DNA of 64,000 nucleotides from Plasmodiophora brassicae (taxonomy: Eukaryota): positions 1,364,001 to 1,428,000 of the forward strand of contig CP145409.1 of the NCBI GenBank assembly GCA_036867785.1, given 5' to 3'. Made by a program: the position numbers and the translations under genes. The notes beneath the pieces are model-generated. The model had not been told where the DNA came from. It made no database searches and worked only from the letters and a program-made list of their open reading frames with translations. Each line of letters begins with the position of its first letter. Position 1 is the stretch's first letter. This document shows, in pieces, positions 17,194-56,101 of the stretch.

Positions 17194-19281
17194 CTACGTG
17201 GACAGGCGAGGCGGGCTGTACGCGTCGTCGAGGTACCCGGCGCATTGGTCAGCGCGAACGAACTGGCGCTCGGGGTGGTCCCGTTTCGTCTCGATGATGA
17301 ACTGGCGGACGGCGTCGACGGTGGACTGGCGCCCTTCGTGCAGGAGCAGGACGAGGTTGTCCAGGCGGCACGAGAGCATGTTGTCAAGGACGGCGCCGGC
17401 GTCGGTCAGCGCCCAGTCGTTCGAGTCGCAGCTCCACATCATGCTCTTGTAGCCGGCGGCGGCGATCGTGCGTCGTACGACGTCGTTCGTCTCGCCGTAG
17501 GGCGGGCGCATGTACCTCGGGCGCACGCCGATGACCTTCTCGATCGCGTCGCCGCACTGGTCCAGCTCGCGCCGAACGCCGACCTCGTCGAGGCTGTTCA
17601 GGTGTGGGTGCGACCACAGGTGCGACGCGATCTGGTGGCCTTCGTCGAAAGCGCGCTTCGTCGCCTCAATGTTCTTCGGGCCGACGGCGTCGTCGAGGTT
17701 GACGCCCACGATGAAGAACGTCGCCTTGACGTCGTACTGTTTGAAGATGTCCAGAAGGTCCAGCGTCAGCACGTTCGGCCCGTCGTCGAATGTCAACGCG
17801 ATGTGGTTCGGGTTGACGCACCTGCTGAACGTGATCGGTGGGCCTCTGCCAGGCAGCAACGCGACTGCTGCTGGCGTCGGTGGCGACGGGGCTGGAAGCC
17901 TTGGCAGGCTGTACGCGTCGTCGAGGTACCCGGCGCACTGGTCGGCGCGAACGAACTGGCGCTCGGGGTGGTCCCGTTTCGTCTCGATGATGAACTGGCG
18001 GACGGCGTCGACGGTGGACTGGCGCCCTTCGTGCAGGAGCAGGACGAGGTTGTCCAGGTGGCAGGAGAGCATGTTGTCGAGGACGGCGCCGGCGTCGGTC
18101 AGCGCCCAGTCGTTCGAGTCGCAGTTCCACATCATGCTCTTGTAGCCGGCGGCGGCGATCGTGCGTCGTACGACGTCGTTCGTCTCGCCGTAGGGCGGGC
18201 GCATGTACCTCGGGCGCACGCCGATGACCTTCTCGATGGCGTCGCCGCACTGGTCCAGCTCGCGCCGAACGCCGACCTCGTCGAGGCTGTTCAGGTGCGG
18301 GTGCGACCACAGGTGCGACGCGATCTGGTGGCCTTCGTCGAAAGCGCGCTTCGTCGCCTCAATGTTCTTCGGGCCAACGGCGTCGTCGAGGTTGACACCG
18401 ACGATGAAGAACGTCGCCTTGACGTCGTACTGTTTGAAGATGTCCAGCAGATCCAGCGTCAGCACGTTCGGCCCGTCGTCGAACGTCAATGCGATGTGGT
18501 TCGGGTTGACGCATTCGCTGAAGGTGATGGGCGGGCCCACCCCAGGGCGAAGCGTCACCTGGCGACGACGCGGCGCCGGCACCACAGGACGTCGGTACCG
18601 CGATGAACGCGAGGCGAGCGAGCGGTCCATGTCGGCGTGCGCAGGTGGTCGTGGTGATGGATGGGGATGCCGCGGGAACAGCTCGTCTATGAGGTCTCGT
18701 TGTTGTTCCTGTTGTTGTCGTTGTTGTTGTTGCTGCTGCTGCACAGGTGGCGTCGGTGGGTGTTGCGCCACGGGCGATGAAGGCGACGAGGGAACATCTG
18801 CATCGGGCGACACCCGCATGGACACGTCGTGATGGGCGACGAACGGGGAGGTGATGACCTGGGCCGTGAGAACGAGGAACGCGACGAGCTCAACCATGAT
18901 CCAGACGGATATGGCAGAGATGATCATGACCTGCACGGTGGTGATCTTACGCGGACGCCCGGGCGTCGCTGGGTAATCCCGGTAAGAGACGACATTGCTG
19001 GTGGCGGTCGTCGGCAGCATCGGTGGTTTGGAGATTCGCGGTGCCGTTCCCGACAGGACGACGAATTCGATATCAGACGGCGTTGCCGGATTCACGATGT
19101 CACCTCCAACGGGTGCTCTTCCGGCAGGTGACTCACGTTCCGACCGCTGGTGGGAACCTGTGGCGGCGGTGGCGGCGCCAGAACCGACCACGCCGGCGGC
19201 CCAGGTATGGACAGTCTGCACGCCGCCAGCCCCGTCATGCAGCCGCCGCACCGCTATATTTAGCAAGGCAGGCACCAACAT
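17194..19281 (-). CDS. Membrane-anchored polysaccharide (chitin) deacetylase with two tandem CE4/NodB domains
   Basis: Each domain carries TFDDGP, HLWSHPHL, RPPYG, DSNDW and LLLHE. A hydrophobic TM segment and a poly-Q/Pro linker lie upstream. Intronless; exact start codon uncertain. Confidence 0.9.
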   Translation of the reverse strand: MLVPALLNIAVRRLHDGAGGVQTVHTWAAGVVGSGAATAATGSHQRSERESPAGRAPVGGDIVNPATPSDIEFVVLSGTAPRISKPPMLPTTATSNVVSYRDYPATPGRPRKITTVQVMIISAISVWIMVELVAFLVLTAQVITSPFVAHHDVSMRVSPDADVPSSPSSPVAQHPPTPPVQQQQQQQRQQQEQQRDLIDELFPRHPHPSPRPPAHADMDRSLASRSSRYRRPVVPAPRRRQVTLRPGVGPPITFSECVNPNHIALTFDDGPNVLTLDLLDIFKQYDVKATFFIVGVNLDDAVGPKNIEATKRAFDEGHQIASHLWSHPHLNSLDEVGVRRELDQCGDAIEKVIGVRPRYMRPPYGETNDVVRRTIAAAGYKSMMWNCDSNDWALTDAGAVLDNMLSCHLDNLVLLLHEGRQSTVDAVRQFIIETKRDHPERQFVRADQCAGYLDDAYSLPRLPAPSPPTPAAVALLPGRGPPITFSRCVNPNHIALTFDDGPNVLTLDLLDIFKQYDVKATFFIVGVNLDDAVGPKNIEATKRAFDEGHQIASHLWSHPHLNSLDEVGVRRELDQCGDAIEKVIGVRPRYMRPPYGETNDVVRRTIAAAGYKSMMWSCDSNDWALTDAGAVLDNMLSCRLDNLVLLLHEGRQSTVDAVRQFIIETKRDHPERQFVRADQCAGYLDDAYSPPRLST
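17214..18538. repeat. Near-identical intragenic tandem duplication, period 693 bp
   Basis: 17214-~17845 matches 17907-~18538 with few substitutions. Confidence 0.95.
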
Positions 19282-20600: not shown

Positions 20601-22290
20601 CCCTGCGTCTGCGTGTAGGGAGCGAGTAAATTACAGGATACTGATCAGCGAAGCACTGCACGAGCGGCAGAACTGATGCAGGCAGAAGGCCACGCTGGTG
20701 TCATTCGTGCTCGTACGATATGGACTCAGTCGGACGTGCCAGCATGGGCCTAGGCCCTCTTCTGCTCGACTCGCTGTTAACCAGGCGACAGAACGGACCG
20801 TCTCGTCGTCCAGCAACGACACGGCCGGATCCGTCCCCGGACGTCGCCTCAGGCACGGTACCAAGAACATGGACGTGGCCTGGGTTGTCCAACTGATCAC
20901 ACGATCGACTGACAAGCCACAATACATATTACCGGGATATGAAACGTGGGGAACACACTGCCTCTCCCAGTATGGTGATCATTCGTGCTGAGTACGCTTT
21001 CCGTGAGACGATACGATTGGCGGTGATGAGCAGGTCCCAGTCAACGGCGCCGTCTGCAGCGGCACGCGCCGACTCGTGTTCCTGGGAGGCCCACACACTA
21101 GGACATGTCTATTCGTTTATTGTGGGATGAACGAGCTGGGCGTCACGTACCCGACGCACGCGGCGAGCGACCCGCGACGTCGAGGCCAGCGGGCGATGTG
21201 ATGTCCGGTCGGCACCGGGCACCATAATACGCGCTGCACGCGCCCTTGTCCTGCTGTTCCAGCGACATGGTCGGCGGCGACGACACGTCTGACGTGATCA
21301 CGGACGAGATCGTCAACTTCGATGCGATACGTGGGGTGCTGCGTTCGGGGTCGGTCGTCGCCAGGCGGGTACAACGCCCGGCCGTGGCGCCTGACGTCGG
21401 CGGGCCTTCGGTGACCTTGCAGAGACGACTTGACGGCGGCGGCGGCGGTGGCGCGCGCGCGACCCTAGCGTCGTCGGCGACATGTCCAGTCGCAGTACAA
21501 GTCCAGGTGGTCTGTGGCACCGGCGCCCCGGCGTCCTCGACCGCCATGGCACCGGCGACCTTCGACATCAGCTGGCGTCCCGGGCATGCCAGCTGGGGGG
21601 ATCTGCGCCGACAGAGAACCAGATCAGTGGTCGGTGGGTGACCCGGACAGGCAGAGACACGTACCGGCTCGTGAGCGTGTACATAACGACCTGCATCGTC
21701 GCCATGCCTCCTTGCTCGATGTACGTTGAACACGTGCCAGAGTGTCCACCAGTATGGTGATGGTGGCATCGTCGGCCCAGGCGGCCCGTCGCGTTGCCTG
21801 CCGAACAAAATGGCAGCGGTCGACGAGCAGGGCGGTCGTGACGAGGGCGGCACGTTCGGGGCGTAACTCATCTAGGCGGGCAGCAAACGTTATCATCCGG
21901 GTGCGCCCATGGCGGGACATACGGTCGAGAACGTACGCACCACGACGACGACTGGATCAAAGAGGTAATAGGAGCGGGACATGGTGCTCGAGGAATGGGG
22001 ACCGGCGCAGCGAAACGGGTCCATGCAGGACGTAACTGGATGGTAGTCAGTAAACATCAGGGCATGAGGACAACAACGGCGACGAGATGCGGCCGTAGAC
22101 CGACCTTGTGCAATGGGCGTTTCGCGACGTGTCCGCTGACCGACACTGGGCGGGTGGCGACGCCGAGAACGACCGGGTTCCCGAACTCAACCATGGCGGG
22201 TGAGCGAATAAGTTCAGGGCGTAACTACTCGATAATTAACAAACGTCAGGGTCAACGGACGCGGACGCACCCTGAAACTGGAGCTACGAC

Positions 22291-22807
22291 GATCGAGGCG
22301 CGGGACCCGGTCACTTCCTGCCGCTCAACGACGCCTGCATTGCCTGACGTACAGCGTTGTAATGGGGCGTCTGGCGACGAAGAGCGGAGGGACGGCACCC
22401 CCCGTCTTGCCGTTCAACGACGCCCCCGCTGACCGGCGCAAGGCGTCTGGCGACGAGGAGAGCGACCCGGGTCCCGACCTCGACCACGGCGAGCGGCCGA
22501 CGAACAAGTTCAGGGCGGAGGCACCTATACGTACGACAATTAATTGATGTCAGTGCATGAGGGCAACCGGGGTCAACGGTGGCGGACGCACCCTGAAACC
22601 GTGGGACTAGACGATCGAGGAGCGGGACCCGGTCGCTTCCTGCCGTTCAACGACGCCTGCAATGCCTGACGTACAGCGTTGTAATGGGGCGTCTGGCGAC
22701 GAAGAGCGGAGGGATGGCACCCTCCGCCTTGCCGTTCAACGACGCCCCCGCTGACCGGCGCAAGGCGTCTGGCGGCGAGGAGAGCGATCCGGGTCCCGAC
22801 CTCGACC
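22291..22807. repeat. Two tandem copies (22291-22485, 22613-22807) of structured repeat family R1
   Basis: ~195-nt unit with self-complementary ends and duplicated internal CAACGACGCC...GGCGTCTGGCG hairpin motifs. Confidence 0.9.
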
Positions 22808-22913
22808 ACGGGCGCCAACGGGACCTGACCAACAAGGGGAGGATCAGCGGGTGACCCCAGATGACGATTGCACGCGGTCGCTGGGCTTACCGGGGGTCGC
22901 GACGCAGCGCGGC

Positions 22914-23624
22914 TTAGACAGCCTCCGGCACGTACGAATCGACGCGGACCGGCCCCGCCCCGACCATGCCGAGCGCCTCAGGCTGCCCGTACCGACGACG
23001 ACGGCTCCGGACGACGACGCCTGCTGTCCTGACGAGGCGATGCACCTCGGGCGGTTGTTGGACAGCAGGCGGGCGCGGACGCCACGTGTAGGACGGCGTC
23101 GGCTCCGGCAGCCGGTCGACGGCGTCGACGATCCGCCGTAGCTCACGATCCTCCTGCTCGATGTAGTACTCGAACAGGAGGAACTCGACAGTTTCCCGCA
23201 TGCGCTCGAAAGCACGTCGGTACTCCTGTACGCGCTCGTGCGGATCGTCGGACGACGCGTAGCGGTGACGTGGCGCCGGGACCGGCTCGGGTCCCCGAAC
23301 CGCGCGACGGTCCCGTCCCAGTTGCATCTTGTTGAACAGCCATTGCGTTTGATCAGGGCGCCAGGAGGCGTCCCGTCGAACGCAGGCGGGGAGATGGACC
23401 GTCGGCGTGGGGACCCTGCGCTGCTCAGATGGACCGGCCCGTTGGGCGTCACGACCGGCGCTGGAACGGGCGGCGCTCGCGGCTCGGGCGGGTCCGCCGT
23501 CCTGAGGGCTGACGCGCTGTGCAACCTTCTTGGCCTTGGCGCCGGGGCGGGCGGCGCGGGCGGGACGCGGTCGGGCTCGTGAGCTCGACGCGCGTGACGG
23601 GAGGCGGGGAGCGAACACGAGCAT
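22914..23624 (-). CDS. Hypothetical repeat-associated ORF (DDPHERVQEYRRAFERMRETVEFLLFEYYIEQE family)
   Basis: Open 236-aa frame in this copy; the related copies at 27520-27790 (+) and 28258-28605 (-) diverge in frame after PSY. No recognisable domain. Confidence 0.35.
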   Translation of the reverse strand: MLVFAPRLPSRASSSRARPRPARAARPGAKAKKVAQRVSPQDGGPARAASAARSSAGRDAQRAGPSEQRRVPTPTVHLPACVRRDASWRPDQTQWLFNKMQLGRDRRAVRGPEPVPAPRHRYASSDDPHERVQEYRRAFERMRETVEFLLFEYYIEQEDRELRRIVDAVDRLPEPTPSYTWRPRPPAVQQPPEVHRLVRTAGVVVRSRRRRYGQPEALGMVGAGPVRVDSYVPEAV

Positions 23625-23629
23625 CGTTA

Positions 23630-23855
23630 GATCGTCAACCCCAAGACACCCGAATCACTGTGGCGAAAGGATCCACGCGGGGTGCTCGAGATACGCTCTG
23701 CCAGCCAGGGCAGTTGCAGGCAGTCGCAGAGCGTATCGTTGCGGTCAGCGCCAGGCAATGGACAGGCGCGTGACAGGCAGGCAGGCACAGACTCTGGCGC
23801 GTGGAAACGCGTGGCAGATGAGGGAGAACTGTGCCCATATGGCGGCAGGCGGAAT
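23630..23855. repeat. Structured repeat family R2, copy 1
   Basis: Direct repeat of ~26705-26960; contains the perfect 12-bp inverted repeat GATACGCTCTGC/GCAGAGCGTATC. Confidence 0.85.
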
Positions 23856-25739
23856 CCGGCTGGCAGTCATCCGCGCAGACTGAAGACGTCATCATCGCCA
23901 AAGCGTGCCCGGTCATCACAATGACGGATGCAACGTCGACGGTAGGCACCGACCAGGCCGAGGACACGTTCTTCCGACATTGCGTCCCCGACGAGTTCCA
24001 TTGCCTGATCAAGGGCACACCGACGTCCGATCCCTGCGGCAGCCTTCCGACGATCTCGGGAAAAGCACGAGGGAGGCGCCGATAGAGGCGCGACGCGCGT
24101 GCAATTAGTGACGCGTTGGTCAAGGAGCAGCTAGAAGTGCAGTAGTGGGACCAAGACGTCCCTATCGTCGTTCTCGCCGACTCGAGGCCCTCGCAGGAGC
24201 TCGTCGGCATCGTCAGATATGAGACTCCATTCGCCAAGGGCGCCGACACCCCCGTCCGGTTGCGAAGAAGAGCGAGGCTGCTGCTGCCACGGGGATCCAA
24301 GTGGAAGCGCCGTGGGCTGACAGCAAACTTGCTGCCAACTTTTTGTTTCCTTGCCGGCCACGTGGATTTACGTGACAGTGCCCTCGCCCATCCTGCCATC
24401 CACCAGTATCCGCTTGACTCGAGTTCTGCGAGACCGCTCAGGCCGGACATAAAGCAAGGCAGCGCCGACGTGAGGTCGAGGGCGGACCTTCGCGGGTACG
24501 TAGATACGTGGTTGCCTGACGTCGTCGTCATGAGAAGTGCTGTCACGGAAACACGTCTGACGAGCTACTCGTCACATCATTCGTCCATTCCCCTGCAAGA
24601 CCCCAGCACAGAGGTGACAGACCGGCTCTGCCAGGTCGGGGAAAGTGAGCGTTCAGCGAACTTCCCTACGGTCCTCGGATCCGAGAACGAGGTGCCTGCG
24701 TTAAAAGCGCGAAACACAAATGAACTGAACTTAACTTAACTTATCCGCCCATTCGAACCAAAGTTCACCGCAGAGCAAACATCAGCTGGCGCACCTCATC
24801 TATTCAGCAACGGCATCTGCCCTCCGGTCAACGTGAGCATTCTGTGGCCAACGTATTGCGACCGGTATTCAAGAACGTATCGTCAGGACATCTCCAATTA
24901 TTCCGGTTGGTGCATCTAGATGCGCAGCTGGGGACTCGGCCGGTGCACCGGATGCTGGCCGATGCACCGGATGCTGGACCACCCAACAAAAAAAGGGTTA
25001 CATCACCATGCGGTTCCCCGGTGGTCCCCCTCCCGAGTACTGGACAGGCCAAACACCATTTGGCTTCGCAATTCGGAATGAGATACGGCACATTCGGTGT
25101 TGTATGAACGTAACCATCAGCACACGGTCGCTGCGGCGTAGTGTGTAGTATCAGTCGATTAACGGGCCACGCTGCCAACTGGATCAGAGGCAGGCGACAG
25201 CCGCTAGCCTTTCCATCGAGGACAGGGAGCAGATCTGGCGGTGGTCGCCCGGATAATAAGGATGACCTTGGAGCGGACGGGTCGACAATCTCGAGGTGAC
25301 TGTTTCGGTCGCACGGGCGGCGACACAAGCAGGATTCAGCGTGCCCCTGCAGACGGCGCATAACAAATGACTCTCTTTACGTGCCAAGTCGGTCGCGGGC
25401 GACAACGCTATCGCTTTTAGCTAGGCATTCAAGGGCGTGTCCGGATCCGATGGCGCCGACGTCGCCAAGATTCTGTCATGTGCCACGTTGACCTGGACCT
25501 ACCTGCTCGTCACCGCGAATCACATCGTGACGTTGGCTGGCACCTGCTCGTCACCGCGAATCGCATTGTGGCACGAAACGGGTGCTCATCACCAACCACC
25601 AAATTGGAAGAGGTGCTGCTTTCCACAAGTCTCATGATCCGCTAATGTGTATTGTGCCGTGTAAATCGATGGATTGAGCGGTCAGCGAGTAGGGCGGTTG
25701 TGGCGAAGGTACGACGATTGACGTCAGGGCACGAGCACG

Positions 25740-25955
25740 GGAGGACGCACCCTGACAGTGTGCGACTAGACGATCGACGAGGTGCGGGACCCGGTCGCTT
25801 CCTGCCGTTCAACGACGCCTGCAATGCCTGGTCGGGGCGTCTGGCGACGAAGAGCGGGGGGATGGCACCCCCCGTCTTGCCGTTCAACGACGCTCCCCCG
25901 CTGACCGGCGCAGGCGTCTGGCGACGAGGAGAGCGACCCGGGTCCCAACCTCGCC
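25740..25955. repeat. Structured repeat family R1, copy 3
   Basis: Matches 22585-22807, with the apical part of the first hairpin deleted. Confidence 0.9.
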
Positions 25956-26704
25956 CGTGGCGCCTACAGGCGCCAGCGGCGAGTGACGCGGCTGGAACTT
26001 TCCAGCTGCGTCACTCGCCGCGCGCCACTCGGGGCGGCCGACTTGATCCGTCGACCAGCGGTGCCGCCTTCACCGCCCTCAGCGCGGATCTCCTGTGCAC
26101 ATACGACTTTGTCAGCCACGATAGTGCCAGGAATACGCCACCAGAATGTTTCGAGCACCTTCTCTACGCGGCGTGCCCGAATTCGTGCTCGTTTGGCATC
26201 CTTGGCCGCCCCAGGTTGAGCTCTGCAATTAGGACATCAGTTCCCACCTGCACTGGACGAATTATAAGAGCCGCGTGCGACTGACCGCGGCAGGTGAAAT
26301 GTCGGCAACGAGCGCTTGGCAGACTTCAATGCGGACGATCGGGGTTGCATGTTCGGGACGGCCGCGCGCCCCACCACCTGGTTCGGGGGATCACCAGAGC
26401 GGAACCCTGCAGGCGCGGCAGTCAGACACGCGTATAACAGGTGCAACAGCGAGGGCGCCAGGATGCCCAGGAACGTACGTGTGACCTGGTCGGGACCCGG
26501 CGCGAACGTCACGTTGCGGGCCCTGGTCGAGGTTGTCGGCGATCGGGTGGCCTGGGCGACGGGGCAAGCGGGTTTGGCGGATTTCAACGCGCGTCGTCGT
26601 GGCGGCATGTTCGCCGAGGACGCCCGCCTCACCTGGTTCGGCGGGTCTTCCCGGCGGGCGGGGACGCGAGTACTGGACGCTGGCATAGCGGGCATACGTG
26701 TCTT

Positions 26705-26960
26705 CGTCGACGACCCCGACTCTCCGAATTGAGTGTGGCGAAAGAATCCACGCGGGGTGCCCGAGATATGCTCTCCCAGCCAGAGCAGTTGCAGGCAGTC
26801 GCAGGGCGTATCGTTGCGATCCGCGTCAGACACTGCCCAGGCACTGGCCAGGCAGGCAGACAGGCAGGCACAGAGACTCTGCCGCGTGGATTCGCGTGGC
26901 AGATGAGGGAGACTGTACTGTGGTACGGTAGTACTGCTGTGCTCATATGGCGGCAGGCGC
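26705..26960. repeat. Structured repeat family R2, copy 2
   Basis: Direct repeat of 23630-23855; long-range 12-bp pairing GAATCCACGCGG/CCGCGTGGATTC. Confidence 0.85.
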
Positions 26961-27519
26961 AGTTCTGACATGATTCGAATTGACGGGACATGTTGTATAT
27001 ATACGACAGGTGATCAGGCTCCTGCGACGAGACAGTGGACCCGGGCAGCGCCATGCTGGATATCGAATATAGCCGTGTGCTGCCTCCACTTTCTTCTGCA
27101 GACGATAGTGCGGATTGCGGTATTTCCTGGCGCCCCCCTGAGATGCATCACACGTGCGAATCGCGCCGGCGGGAGATCACTTTCGTTTTGGGCGTGATGG
27201 GGGGTGGTCGGGGGTTGTCGGGGGTTGTTGGGAGCCCCCGGCGGTCGGGTCGTTGCCGGGATCGCCCCGCCCCGCCCCCGCAACCACGACGCCCCCGGCC
27301 CGGGCCCGGGCGTGAGCGGCGCAGGTGCGTACGGGTTGTCGACTCGACAGATCGGTGCCTGCTGCGGAACATAGTGGTCAGAGGCGGGTTGCCGTGCTCG
27401 AGGCGTCGCCATCCAGCTTCATCGTCCCTACACGGATCAACTTTCGAACCTATTCGAGCCTCGCCGCCGACTTGTACGCCATCGTCACGCCAACGTCAGC
27501 CCCACGACATCATCATCCG

Positions 27520-28527
27520 GACGATCCGCACGAGCGCGTACAGGAGTACCGACGCGCTTTCGAGCGCATGCGGGAAACTGTCGAGTTCCTCCTGTTCGAG
27601 TACTACATCGAGCAGGAGGTTCGTGAGCTACGGCGGATCGTCGCGGTCGTCGACCGCCTGCCGGAGCCGACCCCGTCCTACGTGGCGTCAGCGCCCGCCT
27701 GCTGTCCAACAAACGCCAGAGGTGCATTGCCTTGTCAAGACAGCAGGCGTCGTCGTCCGGATCCGTCGTCGTCGGTACGGGCAGCCTGAGGCGCTCGGCA
27801 TGATCGGGGCGGGGCCGGTCCGCGTCGATTCGTACGTGCCAGAGGTGGTCTAGGCCGAACAGCGTCATGACCCCCGGTAAGCCCAGCGGCCTCGTGCAAT
27901 CGTCATCTGGGGCCATCCCCTGCCGTTCATTGACGCCTGCAATGCCTGAGGTACAGCGCTGTAACGGGGCGTCTGGCGACGAAGGGCGGAGGGATGGCAC
28001 CCCCGTCTTGCCGTTCAACGACGCCCTCGCTGACCGGCGCAAGGCGTCTGGCGGCGAGGAGAGCGACCCGGGTCCCGACCTCGACCTCGGGCGCCAACGG
28101 AACCTGGCCAACAAGGGGGCGAAACAGCGGATGGCCCCAGATGACGATTGCACGAGGCCGCTGGGCTTACCGGGGGTCGCGACGCAGCGCGGCCTAGACC
28201 ACCTCTGGCACGTACGAATCGACGCGGATCGGCCCCGCCCCGATCATGCCGAGCGCCTCAGGCTGCCCGTACCGACGACGACGGATCCGGACGACGACGC
28301 CTGCTGTCTTGACAAGGCAATGCACCTCTGGCGTTTGTTGGACAGCAGGCGGGCGCTGACGCCACGTAGGACGGGGTCGGCTCCGGCAGGCGGTCGACGG
28401 CCGCGACGATCCGCTGCAGCTCACGAACCTCCTGCTCGATGTAGTACTCGAACAGGAGGAACTCGACAGTTTCCCGCATGCGCTCGAAAGCACGTCGGTA
28501 CTCCTGTATGCGCTCGTGCGGATCGTC
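27520..28527. repeat. Inverted duplication, ~400-bp arms (27520-27918 / 28129-28527), 210-bp spacer containing R1 copy 4
   Basis: Reverse-complement match checked at both ends, e.g. TCGTCATCTGGGGCCATCC vs GGATGGCCCCAGATGACGA. Confidence 0.95.
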
Positions 28528-28760
28528 GGACGACGCGTAGCGGTGACGTGGCGCCGGGACCGGCTCGGGTCCCCGAACCGTGCGACGATCCCGTCCCAGT
28601 TGCATCTTATGGAAACGCCATTGCGTTCGATCAGGGCGCCAGGAGGTGTCCCGACGAACGCAGGCGGGGACCTGGACCGTCGGCCTGGGGACCCGGCGCT
28701 GCTCTGATGGACGGTCTTGTTGCGCGTTACGCCCGGCACTGGAACGGGCGACGCTCGCGG
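27919..28760. repeat. Direct segmental duplicate of ~22640-23480
   Basis: Colinear high similarity over ~840 bp (R1 module plus the minus-strand ORF region). Confidence 0.9.
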
Positions 28761-29291
28761 CGGACGACTTGCTGGCGACCAGCTGGGAACGCCCGTTATA
28801 CCTAGTGATCAGCTCCGTGCCGAGACCAAGCTACTGTCGGCGGACGGGCGCTTCTCTGGCCAATGTCGGGACAGATTTGCTCGACATCGAGCTTCCCAAC
28901 GCGTCGCCCAGCTGCGGCGTCGTCGCGGCCCAACATTGTCGCTCGGCTGCCGGGCGACAGATCGAGCGGCGAACGTGACCTGCTCCTGTGGACTGGCAAG
29001 CGTCCCGCTGGACGTAAGACCTGTTCGCCGCCGTCGAGGATTGACGACGTTATCTCCGGGTGGAGTGCGATCGACATGAACTAGGCCAGGCGGCCGCCAT
29101 ACCCGCCACACGTGGACTGCCGCTGCATGTGCCGCTGTAGGCGGCACCGGCGTCCGGCGCATTGCACGCCAGCATTAGGAGCGTCGTGCAACAGCCCGCA
29201 CAGCGGACCGTGCTGTCGCAGCGGACGCACGACTTGGTCATGGGAACGTTCGCGCATCGCGTAGGCACTGATGAATGAGCCATCCGCAACC

Positions 29292-29877
29292 CAGATCCAC
29301 ATCAACCCGGCCATGCGCTCCCTGCAACGCTTGACGATGACGTTCATCCCATTCAGGACGTGGTTGTCCAAGGTGATCGTCTTCCTGGTCACAATCGCGG
29401 TTTACGCGTTCATACGGTGATTGATCATCCACACTAAAAACATAGCATGCGACCTTCCAATGAGATTCCAATGACTGAATTGGCGACGACGACGACGCGC
29501 TGTGCGCCTGCACACCAGAACATTGCCACGATACCGCTCGCGATTCTCATTTTCAGGTGATAAACCTTGATGTCCACAGGACGCGTCAGTTTGGACATTC
29601 CTTCGGCGTTGGTCATGGCGATCGTCGACTGGCTGTCTCGTTCCCTCTGAACGACGCTATGAGGTTGCGCGTCGTCGTCGTCGCCAATGTAGTCATTGGA
29701 ATCTCATAGGTAGTCGCATGGTATGTTCTCAGTGTGGATGAATCACCGAATGAACGCGGTGACGTAAACCGCGATTGTGGCCAGGACGACGACCAGCTTG
29801 GACAACCACGTCCTGAATGGAATGAACGTCATCGTCAAGCGTTGCAGGGAGCGCATGGCCGGGTTGATGTGGATCTG
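29292..29877. repeat. Inverted duplication, ~210-bp diverged arms (29292-29500 / 29667-29877), 166-bp spacer
   Basis: CAGATCCACATCAACCCGGCCATGCGCTCCCTGCAACGCTTGACGATGAC is reverse-complemented at 29828-29877; the inner ends are GGCGACGACGACGACGCGC / GCGCGTCGTCGTCGTCGCC. Confidence 0.9.
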
Positions 29878-30162
29878 CGACGCTGTCTGGCAAATAACGT
29901 CCTGAAAATAAAGAGTGTGAGGAAACTGCTCCAGCTATGTAGGAGGACGACGAGATCCCCACCATTGCCTCGTAAAGACCGCGCCCCATCACTTGGTCTG
30001 GATTCGGTCCCGCCATGCCGACTCGAACGTCCTCGGCCTCTAACTTCCAAACGGATGTTAATAGGATCAACGTTTGTGTGTTGTGCATGACGAACGCCCA
30101 GTGAAAGACAAGGTGAAAATTGTGTGAAAACGGTGTCAAGACGACGTACGGGCGGGCGGGAC

Positions 30163-31082: not shown

Positions 31083-31539
31083 GCGTATATGCATGCGGCT
31101 GATTCGAGAACGCATCAAATTGCGGAAGACGCTGACGAATTTGCAGGAAGGTTCGCATTTGCCTATGCGATGCATGCTCGAAGCCTCTCACGAGGCTCAC
31201 ATATCGATGGCGCCAGGAATGCGAACCAACAGCCGCACATTGCCGCATTGTCATAATATGTACGCGCAACCAGCAGCGCTCAAGAGGAGATAGCGTGTAC
31301 GTGCTGAATGACCCTCGCAGAGATATTGCTGGCGATAATGGGCCACCATTTTCGGAATCATGCATAGAAGAGACATTTCCAAACAGAAGCGGATCGTTTG
31401 AACGCATTCCTGGCGTCATCGATATTTGAGCCTCGTGAGAGGCTTCGAGCATGCATCGCATAGGCAAATGCGAACCTTCCTGCAAATTCGTCAGCGTCTT
31501 CCGCAATTTGATGCGTCCTCGAATCAGCCGCATATACGC
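31083..31539. repeat. Inverted duplication, ~140-bp arms (31083-31223 / 31403-31539), 179-bp spacer
   Basis: The ORF track shows the same peptide (RIKLRKTLTNLQEGSHLPMRCMLEASHEA) on both strands; confirmed by nucleotide comparison. Confidence 0.95.
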
Positions 31540-42473: not shown

Positions 42474-43151
42474 TCAGGTTTGCTCCGACTTGAAAGCGCT
42501 CAGGTCGAGCTTCTGCGACAGCATCTTCCTGAAGTCTACGCGTGCGGCCCAGCCGTGTCAGCAGCGCAGGACAATGACGGGTTGGGCATCGACGCCGACC
42601 TTCCAGGCCGATCTTCCCGTCACCGTCCACGTCGGCGGTCTCCACGACGACCTTGATGTCGTCGTCGGTGATGTCGCCCAGCCCCAGCTTGCCGAGGATG
42701 TCGCGCAGGACGTCGGTGCTGACGAACCCAGTGGATTTCGGGTCGTACACCTAGACAGAGCAGCAGAGGTCCACACCGTGCGGGACATGGCACCCATGAC
42801 ATCCAGACGGACCTTGAACGCTTCGGCGGCCGGATCAAAGTTCGTCAGCGTGTTGTCGGCCAGCAGCTCGTAGAGGTCGTTGAACGTCAGCTCCGACTTG
42901 TTGTTCATCAGGAACTTCAGCTCGCGAACGGGGACGTTGCTGTAGAAGATCGGCAGGCGCGCCTTCAGGTCGTCCATCGTCAGGTACCCCTTCTTGGTCA
43001 CGTCGAAGAAGTCGAACGCCTGCTGCAGCTCGGCGCGCTGCACGTGGATGCCGCCCGTCGCATGATGCGCCGCGGCGCCGACCTTCCTCCCCGTCGGCGA
43101 TGCGCTTCGCTGCCGCAGCGCCGGTGACGATCGCGACGTCGCCTGCGGCAT
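42474..43151 (-). CDS. EF-hand calmodulin-like protein (3 exons)
   Basis: ELQQAFDFFDVTKKGYLT, EAFK|VYDPKSTGFVS, ADVDGDGKIGLE|DFRKML. Confidence 0.85.
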
Positions 43152-55688: not shown

Positions 55689-55773
55689 GGACGACGCTGG
55701 GGACGATCTCCGTGAACAATCCGCAGTCGCCCGAGCGGACAATGATGTTTGTGTAACAACCAGCCTGTCGAGT

Positions 55774-55948
55774 GTCGACTCGCTCTGCAGCTGCGCCTGT
55801 CGGCTCGCTCTGCAGCTGCGCCTGTCGACTCGCTCTGCAGCTGCGCCTGTCGACTCGCTCTGCAGCTGCGCCTGTCGACTCGCTCTGCAGCTGCGCCTGT
55901 CGACTCGCTCTGCAGCTGCGCCTGTCGACTCGCTCTGCAGCTTCGCCT
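55774..55948. repeat. 25-bp minisatellite, 7 copies
   Basis: Unit GTCGACTCGCTCTGCAGCTGCGCCT, head-to-tail with no spacers; two single-base variants. Confidence 0.97.
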
Positions 55949-56101
55949 GTCCGGCAGCTGCACGCTGCAAACGACCCTGACGTGCGTGCGTGCGGGAACT
56001 GCAATCTGCAGCCTGATTTGTATGACTGGCCGGACGTAGCACGTACGTAAAGAGCATCCGCGGGTCGGCGCGCGGTCGCCGACTGCAGGATGTGACGCTC
56101 G

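Follow-up and report, generated by a model that had tools for sequence, protein, structure and literature searches.

The repeat R1 raises the question of whether a fold-back sequence that recurs over a few kilobases of the Plasmodiophora brassicae genome is a mobile element, a structured RNA maintained by selection, or a by-product of local DNA duplication. We tentatively favor the view that R1 is a duplicated hairpin exon of spliced, non-coding minus-strand transcripts that are possibly cut into small RNAs. The two parts of this reading differ in strength: that R1 is a duplicated hairpin exon of non-coding transcripts is highly probable, and that it is a small-RNA precursor, a prediction from the modeled fold, is possible but doubtful.

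Copies of R1 and their local arrangement

R1 is a near-palindrome, an imperfect inverted repeat of ~195 nt. The four copies of the initial annotation, all on the plus strand, lie where they had been placed, and a profile built from them recovered all four with nhmmer (E 2.8e-79 to 3.1e-62), together with a fifth, decayed half copy (copy 0, E 1.3e-9); the next match in the window, that is, the whole 64-kb stretch analyzed here, reached only E 0.38. The copies and the adjacent repeats are listed below, with R1 on its transcribed strand.

22096-22209, minus strand: copy 0, a decayed 3' half copy (nhmmer match 22118-22203, envelope 22096-22209)
22291-22485, minus strand: copy 1, full length, 95.4% identical to copy 2 without an indel
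22613-22807, minus strand: copy 2, full length
25778-25955, minus strand: copy 3, lacking 14 nt at the tip of one arm and with indels of +3, +2 and -1
27919-28086, minus strand: copy 4, 5'-truncated exactly where the inverted copy of block A joins
22836-23483, no strand assigned: block A, contiguous with copy 2
23632-23832, no strand assigned: block B, repeated at 26707-26916 (81%)
27520-28527, no strand assigned: large fold-back around copy 4, with 403-nt arms that are 97% complementary

R1 had been described as dispersed, but all copies reside within 6 kb, each with flanking sequence common to another copy, and all five are in the same orientation, so that they are local duplicates rather than independent insertions. 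Copies 0 to 2 follow each other head to tail at spacings of 293 and 322; copy 0, 67-78% identical to the other copies, is located within the exon-like unit that comes next in the minus-strand direction, and copy 3 has its own sequence beyond 25740-25970. These copies do not make up a satellite either, with only ~2.3 units and no array called there by Tandem Repeats Finder. A 17-mer from the R1 arm, allowing up to 3 mismatches, has 9 matches against 0.47 expected; 8 of them fall inside R1, and the ninth, at 42873, has 3 mismatches.

The surroundings are themselves repetitive. Block A recurs at 28116-28761 (92%) and, inverted, at 27520-27922, and the minus strand of 27500-28550 folds at -1039.7 kcal/mol. 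Each copy of block B has an R1 copy at a distance of 740-820 nt, to the same side in both cases. Three further, unrelated fold-backs are found in the window near R1, and all R1 copies are contained in a ~15-kb stretch without Pfam domains, between ordinary genes.

The R1 cores are 94.6-96.0% alike, compared with 84.5-86.6% for the spacers between them, which also have 46-60 gap columns; within the same duplicates, the core shows 9 mismatches in 195 positions versus 11 in 82 plus 46 gap columns in the spacer. The higher identity of the cores could stem from gene conversion between copies rather than from constraint. Outside the window, there is at least one paralogous locus, in a DNA contig that also carries the R1 flanks. 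The summed contig depth over R1 in the DNA run X4, which is not a copy number, is ~5-8x that of neighboring stretches and hints that copies outside the window are few.

Splicing, strand and coding potential

Evidence of transcription comes from contigs of runs X15, X17 and X20, from three studies, which we guessed to be RNA, with the DNA run X4 for comparison. The presumed-RNA contigs contain four joints with CT..AC ends (21602>21665, 21871>21941, 22224>22592 and 22822>22889), none of which occurs in X4; two of these, 22224>22592 and 22822>22889 (cut +2), are present in all three presumed-RNA runs. The CT..AC ends are those of GT..AG introns on the minus strand, and in each of the four introns the AG is preceded, at a distance of 15-25 nt, by a box such as CTGAC or CTGAT. 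The RNA strand is thus the reverse complement of the strand that the initial annotation had folded. The resulting features are as follows.

22592-22824, minus strand: 233-nt exon with R1 copy 2, splice joints on both sides
22825-22890, minus strand: 66-nt intron upstream of the R1 exon on that strand (GTAAGCCCAG...GGTCAG)
22225-22591, minus strand: 367 nt skipped in presumed-RNA contigs of three runs, with R1 copy 1 inside and splice-site copies of its own
21665-21871, minus strand: downstream exon of the same transcript (X15 record 2)
21872-21940 (69 nt) and 21603-21664 (62 nt), minus strand: introns flanking that exon, from contig joints

The span of exon 22592-22824 is identical to the unit shared with copy 3. 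The downstream exon is covered by X15 record 2 with 0 differing letters from the window and with joins across both introns. At least one spliced contig, in contrast, derives from a paralogue and not from this locus: the X17 contig with the joint 22224>22592 differs by 6 to 34 letters per piece. At a paralogous locus, this joint would remove ~63 nt; a DNA contig, X4 record 24, skips 22251-22554. In a paralogous transcript (X17 record 10), the R1 exon retains 125 of 131 letters versus 168 of 202 in a different exon. The diagnostic indels of copy 3, with its own flanks, also appear in presumed-RNA contigs, as loose ends at 22482 and 22584 (X15 and X20). One X15 contig has the inversion joint of copy 4 (22639>22849, between opposite strands), and a single X17 contig has an unexplained joint that goes back 193, off the splice sites of the exon and with 3 extra letters. 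Elsewhere in the region, the bins 24752-24990 are covered in the DNA run X4 and have no cover in the three presumed-RNA runs.

No reading frame stays open through the spliced forms, each being interrupted by stops, so the transcripts as a whole are most likely non-coding. In R1 itself, the indels between copies (-14, +3, +2, -1, -1) break the frame. None of the 10 open reading frames located between 21 and 30 kb matches a Pfam family, and there is no transposase domain among them. On the minus strand, a 236-aa open reading frame (22914-23624) lies upstream of the R1 exon; it appears to be an orphan, matching only itself in a protein search, with no relative outside its own cluster.

Folding and sequence variation

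The initial annotation was accurate on the elementary pairing of R1: in each full copy the ends form a pairing of ~22 nt, the arms are homologous to each other, and the central hairpin sequences are as quoted there. The folding is far stronger than that of shuffled sequences, with copy 2 reaching -118.9 kcal/mol on the plus strand (shuffle mean -84.9, z -7.0) and -124.2 kcal/mol on the minus strand (z -8.7); for neither strand did any of 200 shuffles fold as well. In all three full copies, the minus strand gives the better fold: -121.7 versus -103.6 kcal/mol in copy 1, -122.7 versus -118.0 in copy 2 and -114.3 versus -111.8 in copy 3. The proposed multi-arm architecture gives way to a single long rod as the minimum-energy fold, the assembled multi-arm form being 12.1-24.4 kcal/mol worse in all three full copies and on both strands. 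The rod comprises ~76 base pairs, and its stem is broken by several bulges and an asymmetric loop. As expected of a hairpin-RNA precursor, this long stem-loop (~76 pairs) is part of a one-strand transcript with minus-strand introns on both sides.

The compensatory changes on which an argument for selection had been built are not supported by the alignment. Only 1 of 76 pairs is altered on both sides, against a shuffle mean of 0.9, and the covariation score is reached by 359 of 500 shuffles. The upstream stem said to covary consists of non-homologous bases, given that GTCAGGG of copy 3 aligns with GTCAGTG of copy 2 and not with TTCAGGG; its motifs belong to a minus-strand intron, as the branch-point box and the 5' splice site. 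The data accordingly do not demonstrate selection on the structure, the covariation being equal to that of shuffles in a test that has no power, because there are only four copies and these are 95-96% alike. The structured-RNA reading therefore survives in part: R1 is strongly structured, non-coding, without an Rfam family and present in spliced presumed-RNA contigs, which makes an RNA-level role possible, and the claim of selection on its structure is not supported.

Two further patterns in the helices bear on this issue. In the consensus fold derived from the minus strand, G.U occurs at 11 pair positions in one or more of the full copies and A.C at none, with transversion-type mismatches at 2 pair positions. 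Of the helix positions, 7 differ between the three full copies by a single transition, and on the minus strand all 7 are compatible with wobble pairing; one pair reads G.U, A-U and G-C on that strand in copies 1, 2 and 3. We considered this asymmetry as proof of the RNA strand and rejected it as not robust: the ratio of 11:0 in the minus-derived fold becomes 4:5 in the plus-derived consensus (4 G.U on plus and 5 on minus), and the wobble counts in each strand's own fold are 7/5, 4/3 and 5/6. The second pattern concerns the arm apices. Between copy 0 and R1, two double changes preserve a mini-hairpin of 5 bp at the apex, with CGCTGACC invariant in its center; elsewhere in that arm, the stems of copy 0 are broken, and these changes are not counted as covariation. 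The 14-nt loss in copy 3 adjoins two substitutions that turn wobble into Watson-Crick pairs. More generally, when paralogues are nearly identical, a strong fold and one or two changes that look compensatory do not amount to evidence that an RNA structure is under selection.

Proposed origin and fate of R1

Direct observation extends to the repeats and their hairpin potential, to the splicing and the strand, and to the lack of coding capacity, and from these the following history can be sketched. R1 lies inside a ~233-nt exon of transcripts spliced from the minus strand, and this exon, along with its intron, would have been copied as a unit by local DNA duplication, in a series that left one old half copy, a tandem pair of recent date and two more partial copies within 6 kb, as well as one or more paralogous loci beyond the window. 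In RNA, the exon is predicted to form one long rod of ~76 base pairs, the likeliest fate of which would be cutting by a Drosha-like RNase III into 21-nt small RNAs; R1 would then be an hpRNA or young-miRNA-like locus. Such processing is conjectural. A stronger version of this scenario, which we regard as rather unlikely, makes R1 the functional module of host transcripts that form a small family, are spliced, have one to three hairpin exons each and are cut to 21-nt small RNAs by a Dicer-less, Drosha-like pathway, the hairpin being kept by selection on the minus strand. Under this version, the one-sided changes between the full copies are wobble-compatible on the minus strand because selection acts on the transcribed strand, and R1 would represent a rhizarian small-RNA precursor that is carried in an exon and amplifies in tandem.

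Among the alternatives, the one we take most seriously, even if it seems on balance unlikely, is that R1 is a functionless quasi-palindrome in decaying local duplicates of a repeat island, owing its transcription and splicing solely to the splice sites that came along in the duplicated unit, with its "compensatory" changes produced by template switching, gene conversion or transcription-linked mutation bias. The ~15-kb stretch without Pfam domains between ordinary genes, the frame-breaking indels, the truncated copy and the decayed half copy, the three unrelated fold-backs nearby and covariation no better than in shuffles are all compatible with decay, and the 14-nt loss in copy 3 beside two wobble to Watson-Crick substitutions looks as if it came from one template switch. 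What neutrality does not readily accommodate is the better conservation of R1 cores compared to spacers and of the R1 exon compared to another exon in the paralogous transcript, along with the better folding of the minus strand in 3 of 3 copies. An undiced, structured cis-element under RNA-level selection (for stability, localization or as a cleavage signal), residing in the 3' untranslated part of the 236-aa open reading frame or in a long non-coding RNA, would account for the location of R1 downstream of that frame on the minus strand within a spliced transcript, for the G.U, A-U, G-C pair and for the 7 of 7 wobble-compatible positions. We nonetheless consider it improbable, given that the frame has neither a relative outside its own cluster nor a Pfam domain, that covariation is not above shuffles and that the wobble asymmetry varies with the strand used for structure prediction.

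Mobile elements fare no better. The ~22-nt terminal inverted repeats, the small size and the absence of coding capacity suit the remains of a miniature inverted-repeat or fold-back transposon that an exon had captured and that was later duplicated along with its surroundings, and TIR elements (Mutator, CACTA, hAT and others) are listed for this genome in Table S5 of PMC13547706. The MITE interpretation of the initial annotation, however, calls for independent insertion sites and target-site duplications, and the R1 copies of the window show neither: no direct repeat abuts its inverted ends, and the sequence beyond both ends is homologous between copies, so that the flanks belong to the duplicated unit. 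With, in addition, 5 of 5 copies in one orientation within 6 kb, no R1 match elsewhere in the window and no transposase domain in the 10 open reading frames located between 21 and 30 kb, a transposon relic is a poor prospect. A self-cleaving or circular, retrozyme-like RNA unit, or else a DNA-level signal (a cruciform, an origin or a protein-binding site), might be suggested by the tandem head-to-tail units, the backward joint in the single X17 contig and the nearly equal folding of both strands, as in a DNA palindrome. The Rfam search, however, retrieved only 5S rRNA (whole window at the gathering score; 21000-30000 with E up to 1), so that R1 matches no family, and the retrozyme reading in particular is contradicted in that, with E up to 1, 21000-30000 matches neither the hammerhead nor any other ribozyme family; the backward joint, moreover, is away from the exon splice sites and includes 3 extra letters. 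These options are very improbable.

Returning to the duplicated hairpin exon, its significance hinges on the fate of the transcripts. If they feed the Dicer-less pathway, they would illustrate how new small-RNA genes arise here, through an exon-intron unit being duplicated in inverted and tandem fashion, and R1 would provide a compact natural substrate for a Drosha-like enzyme; if they do not, R1 is ordinary palindrome-rich, decaying duplicated DNA.

Comparison with known systems

R1 resembles MITEs and fold-back transposons in its terminal inverted repeats, its size of ~200 nt, its lack of coding capacity and its hairpin, but differs from MITEs in its low, local copy set, which within the window shows no target-site duplications or independent insertion sites. 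Retrozymes are hammerhead-bearing non-autonomous retroelements; R1 is likewise tandem, structured, non-coding and transcribed, but has neither the hammerhead motif nor the long direct repeats that flank retrozymes. A metagenome scan with the R1 arm motif pair found 0 loci. In the available parts of the P. brassicae genome papers PMC11191646 and PMC6823432, no passage describes such a nuclear repeat.

The closest analogies are with small-RNA loci. In hpRNA and young MIR loci of animals and plants, the stem originates from an inverted duplication, and tandem copies can occupy one host transcript. R1 shares with these loci the one-strand transcript, the tandem copies and the long stem from inverted duplication, near-perfect in hpRNAs but in R1 broken by several bulges and an asymmetric loop; hpRNA and MIR loci are defined by their small RNAs, which for R1 are a prediction. 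In P. brassicae, the RNA silencing described recently is Dicer-less, with a Drosha-like RNase III and 21-nt small RNAs, and palindromic small-RNA loci are reported in the Fig. 2G legend and Table S8 of Zhang et al. 2026 (PMC13547706). The same source has 234 published miRNAs and gives siRNA loci only as coordinates of another assembly. Six R1 motifs have 0 occurrences in the two supplementary files of that paper, and none of Pb-miR032 to Pb-miR200, compared by eye, resembles R1. R1 is like the palindromic loci in being a long, transcribed fold-back in non-coding, largely intergenic DNA, with a hairpin length within the reported precursor spans, and is unlike them in being exonic, with introns on both sides.

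R1 is probably part of a minus-strand exon

R1, a near-palindromic repeat of about 195-200 nt, is most likely an exon that forms a hairpin, carried by a small transcript family that is spliced, non-coding and read from the minus strand. The four copies reported in the initial annotation are all found at their positions on the + strand:

22291-22485, +: R1 copy 1
22613-22807, +: R1 copy 2
25778-25955, +: R1 copy 3
27919-28086, +: R1 copy 4, 5'-truncated

Three runs guessed to be RNA (X15, X17 and X20, from three studies) and one DNA run (X4) supplied contigs, which were aligned to 21000-24990; such contigs inform on neither transcript ends nor levels, and no ranking by depth was made. Four joints with CT..AC ends are present in the runs guessed to be RNA and none in X4.

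Joints in contigs of the runs guessed to be RNA
21602>21665: skips 62 nt; X15, X17, X20
21871>21941: skips 69 nt; X15, X17
22224>22592: skips 367 nt; X15, X17, X20
22822>22889 (cut +2): skips 66 nt; X15, X17, X20

All four become GT..AG introns when read on the minus strand, each with a CTGAC- or CTGAT-like box 15-25 nt ahead of the AG, and one X15 contig (record 2), identical to the window, spans two of them. Because such joints flank 22592-22824 in these contigs of runs guessed to be RNA, this segment is a minus-strand exon, coextensive with the unit that copy 3 also has. Two more introns, 22525-22591 and 22225-22270, are predicted but do not appear among the observed joints. Both X15 and X20 contain contigs with the diagnostic indels of copy 3 together with the flanks particular to that copy, and one X15 contig spans the copy 4 inversion junction (27919-27922). 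A single X17 contig contains a backward joint (22831 > 22639, a return of 193 nt with 3 letters added) that is not at splice sites and connects the sequence immediately beyond R1 with an R1 truncated at its 5' end, whose start coincides with that of copy 4.

The contig of X17 that skips 367 nt shows 6 to 34 differences from the window in each of its pieces and is thus from a paralogue. One DNA contig of 1728 nt, 81-88% like 21453-22250, passes over 22251-22554; the paralogue thus carries one fewer R1 unit, and a joint of the 22224>22592 type would remove about 63 nt from it.

The spliced forms contain stops in every frame, and the indels between R1 copies are -14, +3, +2, -1 and -1. Codon-position bias of an overlapping ORF, named beforehand as a possible source of the substitutions, is inapplicable. 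Pfam gave no match in 10 ORFs of 21-30 kb, and a protein search with the upstream minus-strand ORF of 236 aa (22914-23624) gave only itself.

R1 copies belong to larger duplicated blocks

A profile built from the four copies recovers them at E 2.8e-79 to 3.1e-62, along with half of a further, decayed copy (22118-22203, E 1.3e-9), and yields no further match below E 0.38 in the whole 64 kb. Self-BLAST shows the copies to be parts of bigger duplicated blocks, one of which includes block A (22836-23483), contiguous with copy 2.

Duplicated blocks found by self-BLAST
22125-22489 and 22418-22811: head-to-tail
22639-23483 and 27919-28761: R1 plus block A, 92%
22845-23249 and 27922-27520: reverse
22581-22822 and 25740-25970

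Originally described as dispersed, R1 is instead clustered, the flanks of each copy being common to another copy. The R1 cores are 94.6-96.0% identical, and the spacers 84.5-86.6% with 46-60 gap columns. This arrangement, a duplicate plus a reverse block, puts copy 4 in the loop between two arms of 403 nt, 97% complementary; for this fold-back a folding energy of -1039.7 kcal/mol is predicted as RNA. We propose that local duplications of an exon-intron unit multiplied R1.

Block B (23632-23832) and its repeat at 26707-26916 are 81% alike, and each has an R1 copy 740-820 nt away in the same direction, a placement that would fit an upstream part common to two parallel minus-strand transcription units; the DNA-contig depth of block B is about 10x that of its neighbours. 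A palindrome with 37-nt arms (25961-26036) directly adjoins copy 3.

Fold and base changes

Two folds are possible because R1, a near-palindrome, also consists of an 89-nt sub-repeat present twice. The predicted minimum-energy fold is one single rod. The multi-arm structure proposed initially, here assembled from locally folded arms, is 12.1 to 24.4 kcal/mol worse than the rod in all three full copies and on both strands. That R1 folds better than shuffled controls is borne out: copy 2 reaches -118.9 kcal/mol (z -7.0) on the + strand and -124.2 kcal/mol (z -8.7) on the minus strand, with 0 of 200 shuffles as good in either case. The minus strand gives the better fold in 3/3 full copies.

Selection on the structure had been argued from compensatory changes. 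The pair singled out does change on both sides (minus strand: copy 1 G.U, copy 2 A-U, copy 3 G-C), but the number of such pairs, 1 against a shuffle mean of 0.9, gives no signal above shuffling. Over the 76 pairs of the consensus rod in the four copies (272 cells), 98.2% of cells are paired, compared with 98.1% after shuffling partners among copies; 359 of 500 shuffles score at least as high for covariation as the real copies. The upstream stem also thought to covary set non-homologous bases against each other; its CCCTGAA is the 5' splice junction of exon 22592-22824, and the intron's branch-point box corresponds to its GTCAG.

All seven helix positions that vary by a single transition among the full copies are wobble-compatible on the minus strand, and the minus-derived structure has G.U at 11 pair positions, A.C at none and transversion-type mismatches at 2. 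This strand asymmetry depends on the structure used and is not robust, since the count is 4 against 5 in the plus-derived structure and 7/5, 4/3 and 5/6 in each strand's own folds. Transcription-linked mutation bias or quasi-palindrome template switching would produce the strand and wobble pattern equally well; the 14-nt loss in copy 3 adjoins two substitutions that perfect the stem.

Genomic neighbourhood

Ordinary genes lie on both sides of the R1 region: a polysaccharide deacetylase gene at 17-19 kb and, from 36 kb on, genes for GH20, SelR, CENP-C-like, enoyl-CoA hydratase and ankyrin proteins. No Pfam domain was found across about 20 to 34 kb, a stretch that contains the R1 blocks, a 5S gene and three further unrelated fold-backs. 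The window is eukaryotic and also includes a tRNA-Pro gene (anticodon AGG).

24995-25115, minus strand: lone 5S rRNA gene (Rfam, 82.7 bits)

Located inside the repeat island on the strand of the R1 transcripts, this gene is about 660 nt away from copy 3. In two of the unrelated fold-backs, 29292-29877 and 31093-31533, the arms measure 115 and 138 nt with 96% complementarity, and the predicted energies are about -419 and -310 kcal/mol; neither is flanked by a clear target-site duplication. A short stretch ending in AACTT repeats (24618-24751), with several different loose contig ends and a summed DNA-contig depth about 29x that of neighbouring bins, looks like a piece far more repeated than R1. 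On the + strand, a direct repeat spaced 258 nt (26316-26633; 70% over 60 nt) overlaps an open frame of 127 aa (26349-26732) that repeats a motif of the form LADFNA..RG.MF....TWFGGS and has no Pfam match. Elsewhere, about nine units of a 25-nt tandem repeat (55748-55976) lie inside an ORF with a PQ-loop domain, and the 695-aa polysaccharide deacetylase ORF contains a 300-nt direct repeat (17210-17509 and 17903-18202, 98% alike), its two NodB-domain stretches suggesting a recent internal duplication.

Comparison with known systems

R1 matched no Rfam family, the 5S rRNA being the only hit, and a retrozyme is rejected because no hammerhead was found (Rfam, 21000-30000, E up to 1). R1 shares inverted ends with MITEs, but it has neither target-site duplications nor independent sites in the window. 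No published description of the repeat was found in the parts of the literature searched, P. brassicae genome papers included. Six R1 motifs were absent from the supplements of PMC13547706, and comparison by eye found no R1-like miRNA in the portion covering Pb-miR032 to Pb-miR200.

Of the known systems, hairpin-RNA and young inverted-repeat small-RNA loci come closest to how R1 would work, and R1 is a candidate member of this kind. According to PMC13547706, P. brassicae is without Dicer and has plentiful 21-nt small RNAs that are phased, favour a 5' C and need a Drosha-like RNase III; palindromic regions yield miRNAs. The recombinant Drosha-like enzyme was assayed there for in vitro cleavage of dsRNA. 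Once transcribed, the R1 rod of 76 bp and the fold-back of 403 bp that encloses copy 4 would be RNA of the type that a Drosha-like pathway cuts, and R1 RNA may be processed into small RNAs in this way.
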